Positions 29,496 through 60,880 of a DNA stretch of 64,000 bases are shown piece by piece. Origin of the DNA: Eledone cirrhosa. Lineage: Eukaryota. Positions within the stretch are counted from its first letter, which is position 1. The number at the start of each line of letters is the position of its first letter. Under the pieces are notes generated by a model. It saw only the letters and a list, made by a program, of their open reading frames with translations, searched no databases and was not told the DNA's origin. The position numbers and the translations under genes were made by a program. The DNA lies in assembly GCA_964016885.1 (NCBI GenBank), contig OZ024742.1:308946001-309010000 (forward strand), written 5' to 3'.

Positions 29496-30553
<1,058 letters not shown>

Positions 30554-31582
30554 TATTGAAGTTTGCTTGAAGCATTGTGGAACAATAAGTAAATATCTTT
30601 AAGTCGTTTGGAAGCCTCGACAATGCAAATGGGTAAATCTCCGGGTAACAAGGTCCGGTGGTGGAGAGAGAGATGTAAGTGGGTGTACGTTGAGATGCGT
30701 GGTGTGTATAAGATGTGTGAGATGTGTAGAATGAAGGGAAGAGTATAAAGGATAAAAATAAAAATAACAACACAAGAGAGAGTTACCTTGGGAGAGATTT
30801 AATAGTCCCTATATATTTCGGATTCACATCCATCAACTGGGGTTTTTTCCGGGGTGGGGGAAAGGTTGTCTGTCGGACAAGTCCGGAACGCGTCTTTCGC
30901 TGTTTGTTGTTTTGAATATCTGAGGTATTCGGCAGAGCGCGCGTGCGCGTGAAATGGGGTCGGTCGTACAGAGGTCAGCGGCCGAATGAGGGAGTGGGAT
31001 GGCGCTAGCTGTCAGTCCATTCTCTGCCTGTTTGTTAAATGTTACTGTCTTTCCGGAAACACATAGACAAATGCGGAAACAAAGACGGAAGGCCCATTGT
31101 CACAATTTTAGCGACTGAAAGAAACGTCGGTACGTTACGTATCAAGGAAGCGCTTTTTATCAAACGACTGCAACCGCAAATAAACAACCGATCAGAGAGA
31201 AGCGAAATGAAATGGCTGGTTTAAGTTAACAAGCGATGCAACAACACACAACACACGCACACACACACAGTAGCATTCCACCATACGAACATACTACACT
31301 GCCAATACAGATGAACAAGACAACAACACACACACACACACTCAAGCGAGACAACAACACAAGCACACACACACACAGTAACATTTAACAAACAGGCAGA
31401 GAATGGACTGACAGCTAGCGCCATCCCACTCCCTCATTCGGCCGCTGACCTCTGTACGACCGACCCCATTTCACGCGCACGCGCGACCTGCCGAATACCT
31501 CAGATATTCAAAACAACAAACAGCGAAAGAAGCGTTCCGGACTTGTCCGACAGACAACCTTTTCCCACACCCCGGAAAAAAA

Positions 31583-31618
31583 CCCCAGTTGATGGATGTG
31601 AATCCGAAATATATAGGG
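31583..31618 (+). ncRNA. Minimal hammerhead-like motif with aberrant CAGUUGA core in the PLE pLTR (copies 34887-34922 +, 30807-30842 -)
   Basis: ccc-CAGTTGA-t-ggat gtga atcc-GAAA-tata-TA-ggg; palindromic stem III ATATAT; followed by a splice-donor-like AAG|GTAACT. Confidence 0.6.
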
Positions 31619-31848
31619 ACTATTAAATCTCTCCCAAGGTAACTCTCTCTTGTGTTGTTATTTTTATTTTATCCTTTATACTCTTCCCTTCATTCTACAC
31701 ATCTCACACATCTTATACACACCACGCATCTCAACGTACACCCACTTACATCTCTCTCTCCACCACCGGGCCTTGTTACCCGGAGATTTACCCATTTGCA
31801 TTGTCGAGGCTTCCAAACGACTTAAAGATATTTACTTATTGTTCCACA

Positions 31849-34472
31849 ATGCTTCAAGCAAACTTCAATACTCTCTTATCCATACACCTGAGCCAGGAAT
31901 TGTTTGCATCCGTAAGGGAACTGTTTAGACTGTCGGAGAAATGGGCCAACGCTGGCTGCCAAATTATTTTCCTGAAACGCTGCCTAAAAAACGATGTCAT
32001 CCCCAACACCATCAAGAACATCCGCTTACCAGTAAGCCTACGTACACCAGCCTTCCAAAACACCACTAACCGCATACATCGCACGTGTATTAAACAGATC
32101 CTGAGACATCTCAACCGCCAATTACACGTCTATAAGCGGACACTCTCAGAGCGGACACATCGACTGCCAATAGCACCCGGAGACTTGCTCCTAAAAATCA
32201 CTAAAGCAATCGACCAGTGCTACCACTCCAGAGTCCAATACGAGAAAAAACGGCTCAAGCGAAAATATGAGTGGATCTTGTCGAAACGCCACAACGAGAA
32301 CATCGACACTAACGAACAGACGGACCAGAACCACGTGGAAAACAACAACTTAACAACCACCACCGCCGCAACCACCAACACCGAGCCATACCTCAACGAT
32401 GCGACGCACCTGGTCACCGACCTAACCAGCACTCTCACGAGCGACGAGCTGAAACTCCTACACCTCGGACCTAAGTTCATCGTCACACAACGTCTTGACG
32501 ACAGACTCAAACTCAACATCGAGGCCAACTTTTGTCGAGCCGCCTACCAACTTAAATGGGTGACCGCTATCAACAGCGCCACAGATAATAACAGCGCCGA
32601 CACAACCCACCCCAAGTTCCCCACTTACCACCCCGACAACCCACTCCACCCCCCACCCACCAACCACGAACTCGACACTAAACTCATCAGGCTAAAACAC
32701 TCCATCTCGGATATACTTCACAAACACACACACACACGCACAACACATAACCTCACCAAATCTCAACTCACCACACTCTCCAACCTAAAATCGAAGAACT
32801 TCATCTATCTCCCCTCCGACAAGGGAAAAGAATTCTGCGTCATCAGCAGAGAGGCCTACAACACCCTGGCCCTCCAACACCTTGACGATGACAACCTCTA
32901 CTCCAAGGTCACGGGAATCACTCCCGCGCAGATAGAAGAACACATCAACTCCGCCTGGACCAACATCTGCGACCGGCGGAAGCTCCCGAAGAAGCTGAGA
33001 TACAACCTCCTCACGAGGAACAGCAGACTACCCGCCTTCTACTACCTCGTGAAAACACACAAACAGGGACCCGACCTGAAAATCAGGCCCATCGTATCGA
33101 GCGTGGAGGGACCACTCTACAAAATTTCATGGCTCCTAGCCAGAATACTCAAACCCATCTTAGACACCTTGCCGGGACACGTTAACAGCTCCGAGGAGGT
33201 GTTGAAGTGCCTGCATCAAATGGATCCCGACACCAGAAGGAATAACAGATATGCCTTCAGCCATGATGTAGTCGCCCTCTACACCTCGGTCCCGGCACTC
33301 CCGGCCGTCAATATACTAATGGAACGCGTCCAATCTACCGACCTACACTGCTTCGGGCTCACCACCACTGACATCCACCAACTCCTATCCATCGTCGTCG
33401 ACAACACCTACTTCGGATTCCTTGACCAAATATACCAACAAACCTCGGGATTGCCCATGGGATCAAGCCTATCAGGTGTGCTAGCGATCTCCTACATGGA
33501 CAACCTCGAACGCAAGGCACTCAACGCCTGCCACCCCAACGCCGTAGCCTTTTTCTCAAGATACGTGGACGATATCCTCATCCTCACATCTTCCCAAGAC
33601 ACGGCGAACAGAATCTATGAGACGTTCAACAACACGGACGAGAACATTGACTTCAGTGTTGAACACCCCAACGAAGACGGGTCACTTGCCCTCCTCGACT
33701 TCCGAATCAACATCACGGAACAAGGAGGGATCCACTGCAACTTCTACAGAAAGGCAGCCTGCAGGGACCTATTCGTTCACTACAAGTCCGCCCTCCCTAA
33801 CAGTGCCAAAAGAGGATACATCACGAACGAGATCGCGCGAATCAAAAGCAGATGCAGCGATCCCGCGAGTGGTGTCACTCATACCAAGCGATTCCTCGAG
33901 GTCCTGGAGACGAACGGGTACCCTACCTCGATCACAGACAGAATAGGAGACACCAGACGCAAGGGACAGAGAAGCACCCAAGGCAAGTGCTTCCTTAAAA
34001 TGCCACACCTGGGCGAGAAAACCACCAACGCTATCCGCAGGCTATACGGAGGGAGGGCCTCGACATCCACCTGGCCCACTCGGGCCCCTCCCTGCGAAGA
34101 TGCCACTCCAGGAAACCCAAAAAATCTACTGACGCATGCTCCCTCAGAGACTGCCCGATACGCCATGCTAACTGTTGCCTACGCACATACGTCGTGTATA
34201 AGATAGAATGTGACAGGTGCAACCAATACTACATAGGTAGCACAATTCGACCTTTGCACATCCGGATCAAAGAACACACTAAAACCAGGGCCTCGTCTTT
34301 CCGGAAACACATAGACAAATGCGGAAACAAAGTCGGAAGGCCCATTGTTACAATTCTAGCGACTGAAAGAAACGTCGGCACGTTACGTATCAAGGAAGCG
34401 CTTTTTATCAAACGACTGCAACCGCAAATAAACAACCGATCAGAGAGAAGCGAAATGAAATGGCTGGTTTAA
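31849..34472 (+). pseudogene. PLE reverse transcriptase + GIY-YIG endonuclease, one frameshift at about 34041
   Basis: PSDKG, KTHK..IRPIVS, SHDVVALYT, GLPMGS, RYVDD, LLD, FYRK. Adding one G at cagg|ctata joins the ORF to AIRREGLDI..CSLRDCP..CC..VVYKIECDRCNQYYIGSTIRPLHIRIKEH. Confidence 0.93.
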
Positions 34473-34603
34473 GTTAACAAGCGATGCAACAACACACAAC
34501 ACACACAGGCAAACGAGACATCTACATACACACACGCACACACACACAGTAGCATTCCACCATACGAACATACTACACTGCCAATACAGATGAACAAGGC
34601 AAC

Positions 34604-34648
<45 letters not shown>

Positions 34649-35157
34649 AAGTGAGACAACAACACACGCACACACACACACAGTAACATTTAACAAACAG
34701 GCAGAGAATGGACTGACAGCTAGCGCCATCCCACTCCCTCATTCGGCCGCTGACCTCTGTACGACCGACCCCATTTCACGCGCACGCGCGCTCTGCCGAA
34801 TACCTCAGATATTCAAAACAACAAACAGCGAAAGAAGCGTTCCGGACTTGTCCGACAGACAACCTTTCCCCCACCCCGGAAAAAAACCCCAGTTGATGGA
34901 TGTGAATCCGAAATATATAGGGACTATTAAATCTCTCCCAAGGTAACTCTCTCTTGTGTTGTTATTTTTATTTTTATCCTTTATACTCTTCCCTTCATTC
35001 TACACATCTCACACATCTTATACACACCACGCATCTCAACGTACACCCACTTACATCTCTCTCTCCACCACCGGACCTTGTTACCCGGAGATTTACCCAT
35101 TTGCATTGTCGAGGCTTCCAAACGACTTAAAGATATTTACTTATATATATCTATATA

Positions 35158-35563
35158 TACGGCTTCCTAAAACTGTATTTCTTTGGAGATACGAAATATT
35201 TATACATATTGTATAAAGCTATGCTTGAAGCAAAATCCAATTTCTTTTTATTATAAGTTGACCCAACTTATGCAGCTTCATATGCAAATGAGATTAATCA
35301 CCTCATTGACACAGACGAGAAAACTATATATTCTCGCCTGTCTTCTAGTCCAGCAGTTGCAAGCGGTGGGGCGGGGCGTCCTGACGAAGGCCAGCTAAGC
35401 CTGAAATGCATAGACGGTTGTCCCCCTTGCTTCTGCTGGACATCACCAGAGGGCGTTATCCCCCCCGGTGTTTGCATAGCTACGGCTTCCTAAAACCGTA
35501 TTTCTTTAGAGATACGAAATACTTATACATATTGTATAAAGCTATGCTTGAAGAAAAATCCTG

Positions 35564-37916: not shown

Positions 37917-37949
37917 TGTTTCATATATATATAAATATATATATATATA

Positions 37950-38297
37950 TAAACGGAAAAAATGAAACGAAATTTCATTTCTCACTCTTAGTACGGCTGT
38001 TACTTAAATATAAGTATGTATACGTACATACATATATGTATACAGGCGTACAGTAGAATGTATATATATATATATACATACATTCACACATATATATATG
38101 TACGTATGGATTCACCGAACATTTATTATAATGCTCGGTGTGTTTGTAAACAAACATCCCGAATTAAGCCGTACAGTGTCTAGCAACCATCGTTGCTCAT
38201 TTGTTCAACACTGACAAAGGAACGCTGTACTAGTTTCAAGCTTATTAGCTATCGTCAGCAACGTATACCTTCCTGCCAGATGGTTGAACGTCTGAAA
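37950..38297 (-). mobile_element. Family G retrozyme-like element, partial monomer
   Basis: Matches 59781-60125; hammerhead at 38223-38263. Confidence 0.8.
38223..38263 (-). ncRNA. Canonical minimal type I hammerhead ribozyme (family G)
   Basis: Reverse complement: cgttg-CTGACGA-t agct aata agct t-GAAA-ctag-TA-cagcg; palindromic stem III ACTAGT. Confidence 0.85.
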
Positions 38298-38789: not shown

Positions 38790-40535
38790 AGTTTTAATAT
38801 ACTGGCTGTATGCAATCTTTAATGTGTTGGCTGTATACAACTTTGTAATACACTGGCTATATACACACTTGTGATATACAATGTATACATCCATTTATTA
38901 TACACTGTTGTAATATAAGGGATGTATACGCAGTTGTAATATACTGGCTGTATATAACATTGTAATGTACACTTGCTGTATACACCCTCGTATTATATTG
39001 GCTATATACACCATTGTAATATATTGGCTATATACAACATTGTAATATACTGGCTATATACACCCTCGTAATATACTGGCTATATACACTCTTGTAATAT
39101 ACTGGCTATATACACCCTTGTAATATACTGGCTATATACACCCTTGTAATATACTGGCTATATACACCCTTGTAATATATTGGCTATATACACCGTTGTA
39201 ATATACTGGCTATATACACCCTTGTAATGTACTGGCTATATACAACATTGTAGAATACTGGCTATATACACCCTTGTAATATACTGGCTGTATATAACCC
39301 TGTAATATACTGGCTATATACACCCTTGTAATATACTGACTATATACACCCTTGTAATGTACTGGCTATATACACCCTTGTAATGTACTGGCTATATACA
39401 CCCTTGTAATATACTGGCTATATACACCCTTGTAATATATTGGCTACATACACCCTTGTAATATATTGGCTATATACACCCTTGTAATATACTGGCTATA
39501 TACACCCTTGTAATATACTGGCTATATACACCCTTGTAATATACTGGCTGTATACACCCTTGTATTATACTGGCTATATACACCCTTGTAATATATTGGC
39601 TACATACACCCTTGTAATATATTGGCTATATACACCCTTGTAATATACTGGCTATATACACCCTTGTAATATACTGGCTATATACACCGTTGTAATATAC
39701 TGGCTGTATACACCCTTGTATTATACTGGCTATATACACCCTTGTAATATACTGGCTATATACACCCATGTAATATACTGGCTATATACACCGTTGTAAT
39801 ATACTGGCTGTATACACCCTTGTATTATACTGGCTATATACACCCTTGTAATATATTGGCTACATACACCCTTGTAATATATTGGCTATATACACCCTTG
39901 TAATATACTGGCTGTATACACCCTTGTATTATACTGGCTATATACACCCTTGTAATATACTGGCTGTATACACCCTGTAATATACTGGCTGTATATAACC
40001 CTGTAATATACTGGCTATATACACCCTTGTAATATACTGGCTATATACACCCTTGTAATGTATTGGCTATATACACTCTTGTAATGTACTGGCTATATAC
40101 ACCCTTGTAATATACTGGCTATATACACCCTTGTAATATATTGGCTATATACACCCTTGTAATATACTGGCTGTATACACCCCTGTAATATACTGGCTAT
40201 ATACACCCTTGTAATATATTGACTATATACACCCTTGTAATATATTGACTATATACACCCTTGTAATGTACTGGCTGTATACACCCTTGTAATATACTGG
40301 CTGTATACACCCTTGTAATGTACTGGCTATATACACCCTTGTAATATATTGACTATATACACCCTTGTAATATATTGACTATATACACCCTTGTAATGTA
40401 CTGGCTATATACACCCTTGTAATATACTGGCTATATATACCCTTGTAATATACTGGCTATATACACCCTTGTAATATACTGGCTGTATACACCCTTGTAA
40501 TGTACTGGCTGTATACATTGTAAATGTATTGGCTG
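38790..40535. repeat. 26-bp minisatellite, roughly 60-65 units
   Basis: taatatactggctatatacacccttg with period 26 (39121, 39147); homogeneous centre and degenerate left edge. Confidence 0.97.
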
Positions 40536-48026: not shown

Positions 48027-48058
<32 letters not shown>

Positions 48059-48063
<5 letters not shown>

Positions 48064-48283
48064 AGAAAAAAGAAAATCAGTGTTGCGACGAAAGGAATTT
48101 ATTGGACATATTACAATTGTTTCTCGGCCGACCAGCTCGAGGCACGATCGATGTGGTGATCAAACCTGTGATGATCACCACATCGATCGTGCTTCGAGCT
48201 GGTCACCCGAAAAACAATTGTAATATGTCCAATAAATTCTTTTCGTCGCAACACTGATTCTCTTTTTTCTGTGATATCATACT
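48059..48283. mobile_element. ~220-bp near-perfect palindrome in (TA)n (family B); inverted duplicate at 53914-54139
   Basis: atcacagaaaa..gtggtgatca aacctgtga tgatcaccac..ttttctgtgat. Confidence 0.85.
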
Positions 48284-48310: not shown

Positions 48311-48351
<41 letters not shown>

Positions 48352-49567
48352 AACCAGTAAGACCCCGATAGCTGAGCTCAAGCCGTTTCGACGGCTAATT
48401 CTGGACTAAATGAAAATTTATCCTGGTATTTAAATAGCCGATCTTCTCAAGGGGTAATTCCATATATGGTCAAAGTGATTGTCAAAAATCAGTAGTAATT
48501 CTGTGGTTGCAAATTAGTAGGGGAGATGGTGGCTAAACCTGCCAGTAGGAGAAAGAGGGGAGGGGGTGGAGTAGACCCAATCAAGCGTTGGTAGTGCCAG
48601 CTACAGCTGGGCATGAGGTCAAAGAAGATACAGGGGAGGGGGAGGGGGAGGAAGTCGGAACGGTAGGTAGAACAATGGGGGGTAGAAATATATAGGAAAG
48701 AAAAAATACTGAGAGTGAAGAAAAGCAAATAAGTGTAAAGAAAAAAGTAAAGTAAATTAAATTCTACGACCTAGGTCTCAGGCTATTGTTAGGCTAGAAT
48801 AAAATAAAGGAAGAAAGAAAGAAGTAAAGAAATAAATAAAGAAAGAAATAACGAAATAAGTAAAAGAACTAGGTGGGACGGGATAGGCAAGGACCCTTTT
48901 AAGAGGTATAAGTACGTAAATGATACGGTGACGGGTCAACAAAAGGGGCCAAAATACTAAAGAGACTACCACGAAATAAACAATAAAGGTTTCCATCCCG
49001 GGCCAGCAACGACCCAGTGCAGCAAAGTGAACTTGTACGAGATAATAATTCTGAGTCCCGAGAAAAATATATACTAATGCTAACTCTAAAAGATCTAAAA
49101 CAAGCTACATGAAAGTTCGTACGAAATAAAGGTAGAATACGGAGAAATAAATTCAGAATCCACCCCGCCCAGAAGAAAAGCGAAGCAAGACATACTGAAA
49201 CGAAAAAATAAGGCATAAGTGCCACTAAGAAATATAGAGGGCACAGAGAATAGTGGGTGCGGTCGGAAAAAGGGGGCAAGTATCCGGGGTCTAAGCCAAC
49301 TGCTATAAAGGGCGGGGTCCGCCAAATCTATCATAGACTAGGGGAGGGGGTGGTGGGGGTACTAAGGCTACATGGGGCCAAAGGGCAGCCTCGGGTGGGC
49401 GAGAAAAGACGCCGACAAAGGAGAAGAGCTGGGGTAGAAGGACAAAGGAGAGAGGGGGGAAGGAAATAAAGGAAGCGATAAAAGAATACAAAGAAGATCT
49501 TACGTCTTCCTTGGCAAGCAGGGGTTACCCATTGCAAAATCGGCAAGTGGGGTGTTATAGCCCTAGT

Positions 49568-50470
49568 CTACCCCCCCCCCCCCCCCGGATCATTATGGGG
49601 TTTGAGGGCGAGGTAAGTCCTACGCAATCTATGTTTACATGCAGTAACCAGTTCATCTTTCTTGTTTAGGAGTTTGTCCGTCGAAAACAGCATTTGTAAA
49701 GTTTCCTTCGAGCATAAATTGCACGGACGGCGTCCTCCCGTGTAAGAATTGGCTCTGGACAGTAATCTCCAAGTGAGATCATAGGTGATGTTGTTGTCCT
49801 TGAGGTCCCATATGTGGCCCGAAAGTGTAGTGGCGTGACGCCGGGCCGGGTTTCGGAAGGTATGTCTATGTTGGTATAGCCGGGTCTTGAAGTCACATGC
49901 GGTAAGTCCTATATAGGCTTTGTTGGAGGTATCCGTCCTCACGTTGCACTGGTAGATCACATTACGGTCTCTGCATCTATTGTCGAGTGGGCAAATAGAT
50001 CTATCCGGGCAGTTACACCTCCTGGTCGGTTCTCCACTGCTATTTAGGTTATTTCTGCCATCGGGGTTGAGTTTTTTGTTGTTAGAGGAGACGATGTTTT
50101 GTGCGAAGTTTGGTGTAGTGCTGTAAGAGAGTTTGATGGTATTTTTGTTAATTATGTTGTGGTAGCGGTGTTGTAATGGGAAGTGTTTTTCAATGAGCCT
50201 AAAGAATAGTTTCCCGATGGGAGTAGTCACCTCTGCGTTGTGGGGAGGATTGAACCATGTTACATTGCGTGAGCGGCGGTGTCTCCTGCTGGTTCCGCTA
50301 ATGGGAGCTGGACAGTAGGATATTTCCTCCCGGAAACCACTCCGCTTGAGGGCCTGGTTGTAATAAGGCGCATGTTCATCGAATATCCGCTCATTAGCTG
50401 ACAAACGGGATATGCGGAGGGAGATGTTTTTGACCAGGTTGTTTGTGATGTTCCTGGGATGGTTTGATCG
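49568..50470 (-). pseudogene. Inverted duplicate of the thumb/GIY-YIG part of the same PLE ORF
   Basis: Translation is nearly identical to the C-terminal ~300 aa of 50464-52428. Confidence 0.93.
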
Positions 50471-52428
50471 CACCCTTCGAGAATGACCTCTTCCAACTGG
50501 TCAAGAACATTAAATTTAAACCCAGACACAACCGATTCCTACAAAAACTCCGTAGCAACTTAACAGAGTATGATAACACAAATGACATCATGGTGCATTC
50601 GGATAAAACTGGGAACCTATACTTTGTCAACCCTGACAGATACCACACACTGATCAGGAGCAGCCTAAACTCCACCTATAAAAAGGCCAACCACTCTTGC
50701 ATCGAGGACATAAATCGAGATGGACAACAAATCACCTCCAGCCTCGGGGTCGCCGACCGCACGGAACCTCTAGACCCACGGACACCATACTTCACACTGA
50801 AGGACCATAAATCCGATTTTGACCGTAAACCCTCTATCAGGCTTATTAACCCAACGAAGTCCGACATAGGGAGAATCAGCAAAAAAATCCTAGACCGCGT
50901 GATACCAAAAGTCAAGCAACACACCCGACTTAGCCTATGGATCAACACCCAGGAAGTAATCTCCTGGTTCAGCAATATGGAGGATAAACGAGAAACTAAA
51001 TTCATACAGTTCGATATAGAGAGCTACTATGCTTCAATCACCTTACCGCTACTTACTGCCGCCTTGGACTTCGCCGAAACACTTGTGCCCATCACCGACC
51101 AGGAAAGAAAAATCATCCTCCACGCCAGGAAGACAGTCTTACTCTTTGACGACTCTAAATGGATAAAAAGAGCTCCCGACTCACCCTTCGACGTCAGCAT
51201 GGGCGCCACGGATTCGGCGGAGGTCACAGATCTTATAGGATTATTCCTAATAGCCAAACTCACTGATATGTTTCCTGCATTCGGTGGTGGATTGTACCGT
51301 GATGATGGGCTCCTTACCCTTAAAGGGTACAACCCCAGTAGTACAGATCGGGTCCGGAAACAATTAATCAGATTCTTCCGCGACTGGGGATTTAAAATAA
51401 CCCTACAAACGTCCCTGACCCGAATAAACTTCCTGGACGTGACCCTCGACCTCGAAAACGACCTGTACTACCCATACAGGAAACCTAATGACAATCTGCA
51501 CTACATCCACCGCCGATCAAACCATCCTAGGAACATCACAAACAACCTGGTCAAAAACATCTCCCTCCGCATATCCCGTTTGTCAGCTAATGAGCGGATA
51601 TTCGATGAACATGCGCCTTATTACAACCAGGCCCTCAAGCAGAGTGGTTTCCGGGAGGAAATATCCTACTGTCCGGCTCCCATTAGCGGAACCAGCAGGA
51701 GACACCGCCGCTCACGCAATGTAACATGGTTCAATCCTCCCCACAACGCAGAGGTGACTACTCCCATCGGGAAACTATTCTTTAGGCTCATTGAAAAACA
51801 CTTCCCATTACAACACCGCTACCACAACATAATTAACAAAAATACCATCAAACTCTCTTACAGCACTACACCAAACTTCGCACAAAACATCGTCTCCTCT
51901 AACAACAAAAAACTCAACCCCGATGGCAGAAATAACCTAAATAGCAGTGGAGAACCGACCAGGAGGTGTAACTGCCCGGATAGATCTATTTGCCCACTCG
52001 ACAATAGATGCAGAGACCGTAATGTGATCTACCAGTGCAACGTGAGGACGGATACCTCCAACAAAGCCTATATAGGACTTACCGCATGTGACTTCAAGAC
52101 CCGGCTATACCAACATAGACATACCTTCCGAAACTCGGCCCGGCGTCACGCCACTACACTTTCGGGCCACATATGGGACCTCAAGGACAACAACATCACC
52201 TATGATCTCACTTGGAGATTACTGTCCAGAGCCAATTCTTACACGGGAGGACGCCGTCCGTGCAATTTATGCTCGGAGGAAACTTTACAAATGCTGTTTT
52301 CGACGGACAAACTCCTAAACAAGAAAGATGAACTGGTTACTGCATGTAAACATAGATTGCGTAGGACTTACCTCGCCCTCAAACCCCATAATGATCCGGG
52401 GGCGGGGGGGGGTAGACTAGGGCTATAA
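50464..52428 (+). CDS. PLE reverse transcriptase + C-terminal GIY-YIG (uninterrupted but N-terminally truncated by the inversion junction)
   Basis: SDKT, TLKDHK..IRLINP, QFDIESYY, VSMGA, YRDDGL, NFLDV, WFNPP, CNC-x5-C-x5-C, VIYQ..YIGLT..FKTRLYQH, CNLC..E. Confidence 0.88.
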   Translation: MIAPFENDLFQLVKNIKFKPRHNRFLQKLRSNLTEYDNTNDIMVHSDKTGNLYFVNPDRYHTLIRSSLNSTYKKANHSCIEDINRDGQQITSSLGVADRTEPLDPRTPYFTLKDHKSDFDRKPSIRLINPTKSDIGRISKKILDRVIPKVKQHTRLSLWINTQEVISWFSNMEDKRETKFIQFDIESYYASITLPLLTAALDFAETLVPITDQERKIILHARKTVLLFDDSKWIKRAPDSPFDVSMGATDSAEVTDLIGLFLIAKLTDMFPAFGGGLYRDDGLLTLKGYNPSSTDRVRKQLIRFFRDWGFKITLQTSLTRINFLDVTLDLENDLYYPYRKPNDNLHYIHRRSNHPRNITNNLVKNISLRISRLSANERIFDEHAPYYNQALKQSGFREEISYCPAPISGTSRRHRRSRNVTWFNPPHNAEVTTPIGKLFFRLIEKHFPLQHRYHNIINKNTIKLSYSTTPNFAQNIVSSNNKKLNPDGRNNLNSSGEPTRRCNCPDRSICPLDNRCRDRNVIYQCNVRTDTSNKAYIGLTACDFKTRLYQHRHTFRNSARRHATTLSGHIWDLKDNNITYDLTWRLLSRANSYTGGRRPCNLCSEETLQMLFSTDKLLNKKDELVTACKHRLRRTYLALKPHNDPGAGGGRLGL

Positions 52429-53527
52429 CACCCCACTTGCCGATTTTGCAATGGGTAACCCCTGCTTGCCAAGGAAGACGTAAGATCTTCTTTGTATTCT
52501 TTTATCGCTTCCTTTATTTCCTTCCCCCCTCTCTCCTTTGTCCTTCTACCCCAGCTCTTCTCCTTTGTCGGCGTCTTTTCTCGCCCACCCGAGGCTGCCC
52601 TTTGGCCCCATGTAGCCTTAGTACCCCCACCACCCCCTCCCCTAGTCTATGATAGATTTGGCGGACCCCGCCCTTTATAGCAGTTGGCTTAGACCCCGGA
52701 TACTTGCCCCCTTTTTCCGACCGCTCCCACTATTCTCTGTGCCCTCTATATTTCTTAGTGGCACTTATGCCTTATTTTTTCATTTCAGTATGTCTTGCTT
52801 CGCTTTTCTTCTGGGCGGGGTGGATTCTGAATTTATTTCTCCGTATTCTACCTTTATTTCGTACGAACTTTCATGTAGCTTGTTTTAGATCTTTTAGAGT
52901 TAGCATTAGTATATATTTTTCTCGGGACTCAGAATTATTATCTCGTACAAGTTCACTTTGCTGCACTGGATCGTTGCTGGCCCGGGATGGAAACCTTTAT
53001 TGTTTATTTCGTGGTAGTCTCTTTAGTATTTTGGCCCCTTTTGTTGACCCGTCACCGTATCATTTATGTACTTATACCTCTTAAAAGGGTCCTTGCCTAT
53101 CCCGTCCCACCTAGTTCTTTTACTTATTTCGTTATTTCTTTCTTTATTTATTTCTTTACTTCTTTCTTTCTTCCTTTATTTTATTCTAGCCTAACAATAG
53201 CCTGAGACCTAGGTCGTAGAATTTAATTTACTTTACTTTTTTCTTTACACTTATTTGCTTTTCTTCACTCTCAGTATTTTTTCTTTCCTATATATTTCTA
53301 CCCCCCATTGTTCTACCTACCGTTCCGACTTCCTCCCCCTCCCCCTCCCCTGTATCTTCTTTGACCTCATGCCCAGCTGTAGCTGGCACTACCAACGCTT
53401 GATTGGGTCTACTCCACCCCCTCCCCTCTTTCTCCTACTGGCAGGTTTAGCCACCATCTCCCCTACTAATTTGCAACCACAGAATTACTACTGATTTTTG
53501 ACAATCACTTTGACCATATATGGAATT

Positions 53528-53621
53528 ACCCCTTGAGAAGATCGGCTATTTAAATACCAGGATAAATTTTCATTTAGTCCAGAATTAGCCGTCGAAACGG
53601 CTTGAGCTCAGCTGTCGGGGT
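53528..53621 (+). ncRNA. Type I hammerhead with compensatory U3-A8 core (UUGAGAA); mirror copy 48362-48455 (-)
   Basis: Stem I acccc/ggggt; TTGAGAA; stem II ga(t)cggcta/tagccgtc; GAAA 53594-53597; stem III acggct/agctgt; GUC 53614-53616. Confidence 0.82.
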
Positions 53622-54134
53622 CTTACTGGTTCCTATTACCCACTCTACTACCTCAAGTATTGAGTACTTTGGTGCGTTATGGTCCACCTGGTTCCTTACC
53701 TCATTTCCTTCGTTATATATATATATATATAGTAATAATAATAAATTTGAAGACTAAAATTCAAAGAGGGCTCGATAAGGGTGAAAGCAGCGATTCTTTG
53801 CTTAAACTTTAATCTGTTATTTTAATAAATATATATATATATAATTGGTGTTGGATGCTTAAAGCGTCCGTATGCGGTAGGCCGTTTGAGCACTCGGTGC
53901 CCTCATGGAGCAGAGTATGATATTACAGAAAAAAAGAGAATCAGTGTTGCGACGAAAAGAATTTATTGGACATATTACAATTGTTTCTCGGGTGACCAGC
54001 CCGAAGCACGATCGATGTGGTGATCACCACAGGTTTGATCACCACATCGATCGTGCCTCGAGCTGGTCGCCCGAGAAACAATTGTAATATGTCCAATAAA
54101 TTCCTTTCGTCGCAACACTGATTTCCTTTTTTCT

Positions 54135-54171
<37 letters not shown>

Positions 54172-55903: not shown

Positions 55904-59284
<3,381 letters not shown>

Positions 59285-59699: not shown

Positions 59700-59705
<6 letters not shown>
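59478..59705. mobile_element. Family E fold-back insert in (TA)n; hammerhead-like motif 59610-59652 (-)
   Basis: Arms about 59478-59549 and 59636-59705. Reverse complement: att-TTGAAGA-cc gtac gaaa gtac-GAAA-cagagctctg-TC-agt. Confidence 0.65.
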
Positions 59706-59780
<75 letters not shown>

Positions 59781-59782
<2 letters not shown>

Positions 59783-60816
59783 AATGGAAAAGAATGAAAG
59801 GAAATTTCATTTCTCACTCTTAGTACGGCTGATACTTAAATGTAAGTATGTATACGTACATACATATATGTATACAGACGTACAGTAGTATGTATATATA
59901 TATACATACATGCACACATATATATATGTACGTATGGGTTTACCGAACATTTATTATAATGTTCGGTTTGTTTGTAAACAAACAGCCAGAATTAAGCCGT
60001 ACAGTGTTCGGCAACCATCGTCGCCCTTTTGTTCAACACTGACAAAGGAACGATGAACTAGTTTCAAGCTTATTAGCTATCGTCAGCATCGTATACCTTC
60101 CTGTCAGATGATTGAACGTTTGAAAGTATATACTTTCCTTATGCATATTAACGGCCGAGCAGCCTAATTTGCATATCGAGTGAGTTAGTCGGCCGGGCGT
60201 ACCGAAAACGATAAATGGAAAAGAATGAAATGAAATTTCCTTTCTCACTCTTAGTACGTGTGATACGTACATACATATATGTATACAGATGTACAGTAGT
60301 ATGTATATATATACATACATGCACACATATATATAAATGTACGTATGGGTTTATCGAACATTTATTATAATGTTCGGTTTCTTTGTAAACAAACAGCCAG
60401 AATTAAGCCGTACTAAGAGTGAGAAATGAAATTTCATTTCATTCTTTTCCATTTATCGTCAGTACGCCCGGGCGACTAACTCACTCGATATGCAAATTAG
60501 GCTGCTCAGCCGTTAATATGCATAAGGAAAGTATATACTTTCAGACCTTCAACCATCTGGCAGGAAGGTATACGATGATGACGATAGCTAATAAGCTTGA
60601 AACTAGTTCATCGTTCCTTTGTCAGTGTTGAACAAAAGGGCGACAATGGTTGCCGAACACTGTACGGCTTAATTCTGGCTGTTTGTTTACAAACAAACCG
60701 AACATTATAAAAAATGTTCGGTAAACCCATACGTACATATATATATGTGTGCATGTATGTATATATATACATACTACTGTACGTCTGTATACATATATGT
60801 ATGTACGTATACATAC

Positions 60817-60823
<7 letters not shown>
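59781..60823. mobile_element. Family G retrozyme-like array: ~1.5 tandem 431-bp monomers (-) plus one inverted near-monomer (+)
   Basis: taaatggaaaagaatgaaa at 59781 and 60212; inversion at agccgtac (about 60406-60413). Confidence 0.85.
60051..60091 (-). ncRNA. Canonical minimal type I hammerhead (family G); C3A-mutant mirror copy at 60573-60613 (+)
   Basis: Reverse complement: cgatg-CTGACGA-tagctaataagctt-GAAA-ctag-TT-catcg. Confidence 0.87.

Positions 60824-60880
<57 letters not shown>

Follow-up and report, generated by a model that had tools for sequence, protein, structure and literature searches.

Animal non-LTR retrozymes are non-coding elements of low GC content, arranged in tandem units with one type I hammerhead ribozyme each, and their monomers, dimers and multimers lie scattered through genomes by the thousand (Cervera and de la Pena 2020, PMC7229834). 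Their unit size is given as 150–450 bp (PMC7229834) or 51–972 bp (Li, Clavereau, Pollet 2026, bioRxiv 10.64898/2026.07.22.740005), and the latter work links them to the pseudo-LTRs (pLTRs) of Penelope-like elements (PLEs). The word ‘inverted’ is absent from the available text of the 2020 paper (PMC7229834), and insertion ends are not treated in the available part of the more recent one (10.64898/2026.07.22.740005). Endonuclease-positive PLEs combine a pLTR with an adjacent inverted 5′-truncated copy and an optional tail of 30–40 bp (PMC8557442, PMC3846280). In existing descriptions the PLE tail is often one-sided, and the origin of both the tandem/inverted structures and the one-sided tail is described as still undefined (PMC8557442). 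In vitro, the PLE protein of Poseidon introduces a nick into each strand of the target and extends both; it favours AT-rich DNA, and a dimer is predicted for it (Frangieh et al. 2024, PMC11167929). Poseidon PAc initiates internally in vitro, at two neighbouring positions of the RNA that lie beyond the hammerhead on its downstream side and mark the limits of the genomic tail, and these starts do not need ribozyme cleavage; according to the available text the start site was no different between strands, and pairing within one event lay outside that assay (PMC11167929).

How animal retrozymes are moved is still a matter of hypothesis. In the twin priming of LINE-1 each end of the target serves as a primer on the RNA, and microhomology joins the two cDNAs head to head; the position of the second priming varies, and the two parts cover separate stretches of the element. 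Here we describe a retrozyme-like family of 431 nt that, together with a sister family, offers thousands of natural reaction products on a small ORF-free template. The strict pairing of its starts, its non-nested arms and an identical two-armed array make the PLE/retrozyme mechanism experimentally tractable.

Architecture of the element

The window, by which we mean the whole stretch of DNA analysed (64 kb), belongs to a genome of 3.0 Gb that is rich in microsatellites. At 59780–60826 it carries a head-to-head insertion of 1.5 tandem 431-nt units and an inverted arm, flanked by (TA)n runs; the mapping bears out the preliminary description, which had proposed a 431-nt retrozyme-like unit present as about 1.5 tandem monomers followed by an inverted copy, and sets the right end at 60826. 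The features are listed below, with m denoting positions on the monomer.

59703–59779, unstranded: (TA)n target microsatellite, left flank (sequence)
59780–60210, minus: complete 431-nt unit (m1–431) of the forward arm; the outer end is the tailed start m1, and the RNA sense is minus
59780–59836, minus: tail of 57 nt, bounded by the fixed outer ends m1 and m58, each of which starts with TAAATG on the plus strand
59823–59830, minus: 3′ arm of an 8-bp multiloop-closing helix, paired with 59995–60002 (fold, covariation)
59995–60002, minus: 5′ arm of the same helix, paired with 59823–59830 (fold, covariation)
60051–60091, minus: minimal type I hammerhead of the forward arm, with predicted cleavage (sequence, motif scan, covariation)
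60211–60413, minus: second unit, 5′-truncated (m1–223), with a private 20-bp deletion
60406–60413, unstranded: head-to-head junction with 8-nt microhomology, shared by 11 loci genome-wide
60406–60826, plus: inverted arm, m51 to m1 (60406–60456) and then m431 to m57, aligned from m426 onwards at 60459–60826; the outer end is the tail-less start
60573–60613, plus: hammerhead of the inverted arm, with a private C3A at 60578 (sequence)
60827–60877, unstranded: (TA)n right flank (sequence)
37949–38297, minus: independent single-arm copy (m1–346) with a tailed start, truncated at m346, following a (TA)n run

The forward and inverted arms overlap at 60406–60413 by the eight bases AGCCGTAC, the reverse complement of GTACGGCT at m44–51, and both segments are paired in the predicted fold of the minus-strand RNA. 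The inversion had been proposed to land on agccgtac, pairing with gtacggct elsewhere in the monomer; the overlap and the predicted pairing agree with this proposal, but in the second forward-arm unit the GTACGGCT partner is no longer intact, the unit carrying GTACGTGT along with its 20-bp deletion. Compared with unit 1, the inverted arm differs at four linked subfamily sites (m325, 332, 341 and 377). The independent copy that had been reported near 37950–38297, with stem I changed to CGUUG/CAGCG, is indeed found at 37949–38297; it is about 91% identical to the unit and belongs to another subfamily, with U-G in stem I and a GUA cleavage triplet.

The 431-nt family and its sister

Genome-wide, the exact pattern of the ribozyme core has 11,774 matches and an exact 30-mer of the tail 6,575. 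Mapping 218 fetched loci on the monomer gave 193 unique insertions (83 single-arm copies, 87 simple head-to-head insertions and 23 complex loci), drawn as best hits or as first hits along one contig rather than at random across the genome; about half of the simple insertions are head-to-head. The units occur both in tandem and dispersed and contain no ORF of at least 150 aa, and m431 runs straight into m1 between units, leaving no RT or GIY-YIG ORF in the element. Outer ends, which correspond to the RNA 3′ end, concentrate at m1 (95) and m58 (51), followed by m61 (15) and a minor site at m18 (8), and inner ends are scattered over the whole 431-nt unit. Truncation at the 5′ end, partial tandems, an arm inverted head to head and two fixed 3′ ends with an optional tail between them are all present in the family, a high-copy non-coding hammerhead element that is likely to be an animal non-LTR retrozyme and a non-autonomous PLE. 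DNA contigs from two of the four listed sequencing runs confirmed the polymorphic sites and the scattered joints. A limit of the 5′ ends at the ribozyme cut site, suggested by partial units reaching at most m276 in the first 30 best-hit loci, was gone in position-ordered samples and was discarded.

Among inverted insertions, TA runs adjoin the outer end in 59 of 74 cases on the tailed side and in 45 of 76 on the tail-less side. In a comparison for target-site duplications, the two flanks have at least 9 nt in common in 8 of 64 pairs, against 3.2 in shuffles (maximum 6), and nearly all of these stretches are microsatellite-like and lie in a (TA)n context.

A homologous sister retrozyme family of 467 nt (9,809 matches of a degenerate hammerhead pattern; example at L257:1835–2301 on contig C1) has a tail of about 70 nt and forms arrays of up to about 30 units; a DNA search that used one stretch of it and passes over common words gave no match. 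One of its insertions (L296/L301) holds 18 exactly identical units of 468 nt, 6 in one arm and 12 in the other, with private variants in each arm, and is very young; other long arrays (L297, L299–L298) are internally varied, as local expansion would give. A circular template would be the simplest reading of the identical 18-unit array, and assembly polishing could also yield such identity.

Tailed arms are paired with tail-less arms

Both outer ends are readable in 64 of the 87 simple inverted insertions, and every one of these (64/64) pairs one tailed with one tail-less arm; tailed/tailed or tail-less/tail-less pairs do not occur (0/64). This count leaves out 23 insertions with an unreadable outer end, the 23 complex loci and the 83 single-arm copies, and it includes L009 alone of L008 and L009, which look like one duplicated insertion. 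The pairing holds in each sample, with 20/20 core-selected, 15/15 best-hit and 29/29 tail-selected insertions, the last of which under-samples tail-less pairs. Single-arm copies in the core-selected sample are tailed in 11 and tail-less in 13 cases, and the chance of a 20/20 pairing is about 1e-6 (2^-20 by hand arithmetic, if starts were independent). All 14 inverted insertions scored in the sister family are likewise tailed plus tail-less, one with an unreadable end (L282) and the complex loci L253/L300, L287 and L293 being left out.

In 25 of the 64 insertions neither arm lies within the other, a number somewhat below the 31.4 ± 3.6 obtained from shuffled arms, and some arms may be nested for a reason. 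The arms of L313, L320 and L321 have no sequence in common at all. Those of L313 are m63–223 and m1–50, joined at the 8-bp stem; they do not overlap and therefore neither can be a copy of the other. A snap-back fails for non-nested arms in general because a cDNA fixed to the target can serve as template only for what it contains itself.

The two arms of an insertion probably derive from one source: rare alleles are common to both in 11% of cases, compared to 1.0% for cross pairs and 1.1% for subfamily-matched pairs, and diagnostic sites mismatch in 7% as opposed to 48%. Gene conversion could also produce such allele sharing. In L015 and L026 the arms differ at linked subfamily sites, as they do in 59780–60826.

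Hammerhead and RNA fold

The hammerhead at 60051–60091 comprises stem I (CGAUG/CAUCG), the core CUGACGA...GAAA, a 4-bp stem II and a palindromic stem III, with a cut predicted between 60056 and 60055 at a GUU triplet. A search of the 64-kb window at the Rfam gathering score gave no matches, and the hammerhead call therefore rests on the core motif, the helices and their covariation. The palindromic stem III of 2 bp suggests, by analogy, that activity may depend on dimers, as has been established for amphibian motifs (PMC7229834).

The preliminary description had advanced the altered stem I as a sign of selection on the ribozyme, a claim that the larger alignment strengthens. Across 250 segments the middle pair of stem I is A-U in 104, U-G in 75 and G-U in 49, and another hairpin pair is G-C in 136, A-U in 93 and G-U in 28, such covariation within the family amounting to few independent events. 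The motif alignment contains no polymorphic site among the 11 core positions of the family; 100 of the loci had been picked on an exact core. Between the 431-nt and 467-nt families 12 of 26 tested pairs changed on both sides (1–2 when the pairing is slid); stem I contributed 3 of its 6 pairs, stem II 3 of 4 and the 8-bp stem 2 of 7, and most of the changes represent one between-family event apiece. Five named helices in 9 + 5 real copies have 98.9% of their cells paired, and a shuffle control on the number of pairs gave no significance (43/500). Judged from these alignments, the 8-bp stem is itself conserved and compensated as a helix, and selection acting on the ribozyme fold is supported.

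Folding of the monomer, which had been put forward as a check, gave a structure much more stable than shuffles (z -10.6) in which the 8-bp stem is predicted; the AT-rich palindromic part probably contributes to this score. In the circular fold a long-range helix spans the unit junction (60178–60184 with 59813–59819, that is m399–405 with m34–40), and its pair m404/m35 has changed from U-A to C-G in 10 segments.

The C3A mutation ascribed earlier to the core of the inverted copy is present at 60578; found in 1 of 250 segments and resembling ordinary decay, it was rejected as a meaningful change. After insertion the core is conserved no better than other invariant sites (26/1253 vs 585/21931 decayed, p 0.24).

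Inversion junctions

An exact 22-mer spanning the 60406–60413 junction has 11 matches genome-wide, L313 among them. Among control junctions of like design, a 7-bp stem, the long-range helix m399–405/m34–40, returned 9 matches and is a recurrent inversion junction too; a 7-nt microhomology outside any stem and a loopless palindrome of 8 nt returned 3 each. All four counts exceed the roughly 0.5 matches at most that we estimate by hand for uniform breakpoints, which indicates that microhomology matters. There may be a weak preference for stems (11 and 9 vs 3 and 3), a comparison confounded by both stems sitting in the tail and being GC-richer. At the agccgtac stem, for which enrichment of breakpoints had been proposed, the genome-wide matches surpass expectation; only 2 of the 87 sampled inversions (L001 and L228) use the stem, and a possible added effect of it is confounded by position and GC content.

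Inserted bases are found at 46 of 87 junctions according to the X-drop caller, whose figure we adopted (other callers gave 30/68 and, with strict settings, 63/87). Among the direct joins with an overlap of up to 12 nt, 26 of 36 have at least 2 nt of microhomology against 17.7% expected, five loci with overlaps longer than 12 nt being excluded from this test. Inserted bases and microhomology together are as end joining would give. Around 9 of the 87 junctions lie in hairpins or palindromes and resemble snap-backs, and L317 and L319 are loopless palindromic joins.

Neighbouring elements and the search for a partner enzyme

The window harbours an autonomous PLE at 30545–35144, with RT and GIY-YIG encoded by an ORF in two frames, direct pLTRs and an inverted arm. 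A 40-bp tail is present on one arm only, an asymmetry like that of the 431-nt insertions; candidates of this PLE number 2,532 genome-wide, and a regular expression detected no canonical hammerhead in it. Right after it a hammerhead-like motif at 35376–35421 (plus strand), with stems I and II of 4 bp and a palindromic stem III, lies in a 323-bp direct repeat (35158–35245/35481–35568) and possibly represents a further retrozyme family. A third hammerhead-bearing tandem unit, with a period of 310 bp, occurs at L183:253–615 and L061:1455–1818.

A second PLE-like element at 48347–53636 has a truncated ORF of 659 aa with a Cys-rich linker and a GIY-YIG-like end, and inverted arms of 2.1 kb that are 99.4% identical; a Pfam search of this ORF gave no match. 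Its relatives (35–59% identity) are common near copies of the 431-nt family. The element is flanked by two copies, 97% identical, of a palindrome some 220 bp long that sits in (TA)n (48027–48283 and 53914–54171) and may be MITE-like or a head-to-head stump. Elsewhere in the window there are a 26-bp minisatellite of 62 copies (38899–40517) and, just left of 59780–60826, pieces of a LINE-like ORF on the minus strand (56005–59280) which by their appearance we take to encode an endonuclease and an RT.

Searches for a partner enzyme, by tblastn of the PLE proteins of the window against fetched flanks, by protein search and by profile searches of masked loci, identified none; the protein search brought back only the queried PLE's own family. 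No pLTR sequence shared with an autonomous PLE was found in the two PLEs of the window, in 30 loci of one of them or in other fetched flanks, which cover a small part of the PLE families of the genome. Matches to PLE ORFs beside 431-nt copies mostly look like older elements that were used as targets. At two sites (L044/L249:3273–6396 and L049/L250:2057–3213) family units are fused directly to 5′-truncated fragments of a PLE ORF, one of the pairs being an 853-bp inverted duplication; the fusions could stem from template jumps between RNAs or from later rearrangement.

Origin of the head-to-head form

We regard it as probable that the element is a retrozyme moved in trans by a Penelope-like RT/endonuclease and that its head-to-head form results from double priming, at m1 and m58, by the two strands of a cut (TA)n target. 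Each strand of the cut target would prime one cDNA, one of them starting at the tailed m1 and the other at the tail-less m58, and both would probably be copied from one source RNA, which may plausibly have been a tandem transcript or else a circle closed by ligation after ribozyme cleavage. Each cDNA would be extended over a variable distance by strand displacement, often for more than one unit, and the free 3′ ends would be joined through microhomology-mediated end joining; single-arm copies would represent events in which one cDNA was lost or very short. The coincidence of the 60406–60413 junction with an RNA stem follows from the geometry, since microhomology between antisense cDNA ends has to be an inverted repeat within the unit, and a join can land on a stem without the structure guiding it. 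Besides the strict start pairing, the non-nested arms and the alleles found in both arms, the in vitro behaviour of the Poseidon protein (PMC11167929) and the one-sided tail of the autonomous PLE at 30545–35144 speak for this model; the absence of a partner among the sequences searched, the slightly low number of non-nested arms, the hairpin junctions and the equal start sites on both strands in the Poseidon assay (PMC11167929) count against it.

A more specific version, which we offer tentatively and would not quite expect to hold, places a Penelope-type RT dimer on one ribozyme-made circular RNA with two obligatory starts 57 nt apart, rolling round it twice at once and making one cDNA per target strand. 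The identical 18-unit sister array and the m404/m35 pair hint at a circular monomer RNA. The four linked differences in 59780–60826, and those of L015 and L026, speak against one monomeric circle and are better accounted for by a pair of RNAs, by a multimer of mixed units or by subsequent gene conversion; the varied long arrays and the somewhat low number of non-nested arms also tell against a circular template. If true, this single step would explain the inverted arms of PLEs, their one-sided tail and the long perfect arrays of retrozymes.

The two primed cDNAs might instead have a different RNA molecule each as template, with a protein dimer binding the two RNAs asymmetrically, an unlikely variant of our preferred model that shares part of its probability. 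The linked subfamily differences between the arms of 59780–60826, L015 and L026 favour it; most arm pairs, however, share subfamily and rare alleles and would require one dominant source RNA per cell, and the strict asymmetry of the starts is simpler on one RNA.

Resolution by the endonuclease, suggested in passing for PLEs (PMC8557442), posits a palindromic DNA intermediate with tails at both ends, one of which is trimmed at m58 upon integration. It would account for one tail per insertion and, after trimming, permit non-nested arms, and the AT-rich motif at the tail-less start resembles that at the tailed start. We nevertheless judge it distinctly improbable: it requires an extrachromosomal intermediate in place of target priming, RT starts fall at both tail ends in vitro (PMC11167929), it would have to assume for L313, L320 and L321 a very short arm whose template was trimmed away afterwards, and the bases so often inserted at the inner junction indicate end joining.

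The preliminary description favoured a fold-back, in which a single cDNA folds onto itself at an internal stem and serves as its own template, the breakpoint thus being fixed by RNA/cDNA structure, and self-priming has been proposed for rotifer Penelopes (PMC3846280). The element at 59780–60826 is nested and its junction is the 8-bp fold stem, alleles are common to both arms, and the hairpin junctions and the excess of stem over non-stem matches are in its favour. As a general mechanism we nonetheless find it very improbable, with 2/87 inversions at the stem, breakpoints mostly scattered, 25/64 insertions non-nested and the arms of L313 disjoint even at that very stem. It offers no reason why copying must stop at the other start site in 64/64, and in 59780–60826 unit 2 is without an intact partner and the inverted arm departs from unit 1 at the four linked sites. 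Contradicted as a general rule by the non-nested loci, fold-back survives for a minority of junctions only.

Rearrangement after insertion, or the separate arrival of two copies in a single (TA)n run, is scarcely credible and already contradicted by the start pairing: (TA)n runs do attract many elements and complex loci such as L100, L117 and L249 exist, but independent events would produce neither 64/64 tailed plus tail-less pairs nor shared rare alleles, and the arms would normally be separated by a remnant of the target.

Comparison with known systems

The class of element and the qualitative asymmetry of the tail are already known. The 431-nt family resembles animal non-LTR retrozymes in its tandem non-coding hammerhead units, in low GC content, in a unit size within their range, in its thousands of dispersed copies and in its co-occurrence with PLEs; it is unlike the described ones in that about half of its simple insertions are head-to-head with fixed paired starts, and it is known here from DNA alone. 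Neither a strict tailed/tail-less pairing nor a two-start model for retrozyme inversions was found in the literature searched, which consisted mostly of the main texts of open-access papers.

With PLEs the family shares 5′ truncation, partial tandems, the inverted arm and the optional tail. In contrast to the elements of the available descriptions (PMC8557442, PMC3846280) it has no ORF and a longer tail (57 nt, and about 70 nt in the sister family), its tail asymmetry is counted as a strict rule, and arms may extend to many identical units. Poseidon PAc is similar in having two internal RT starts that bound the tail, an AT-rich target and priming on both strands, but its start region is AC-rich and lies inside an ORF, and in the available account the starts are not linked per event and inverted arms are not explained (PMC11167929).

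A further parallel is with the twin priming of LINE-1, from which the 431-nt family differs in that both sites are fixed, 57 nt apart, and that most of its arm pairs have an overlap, which in many cases exceeds one unit.
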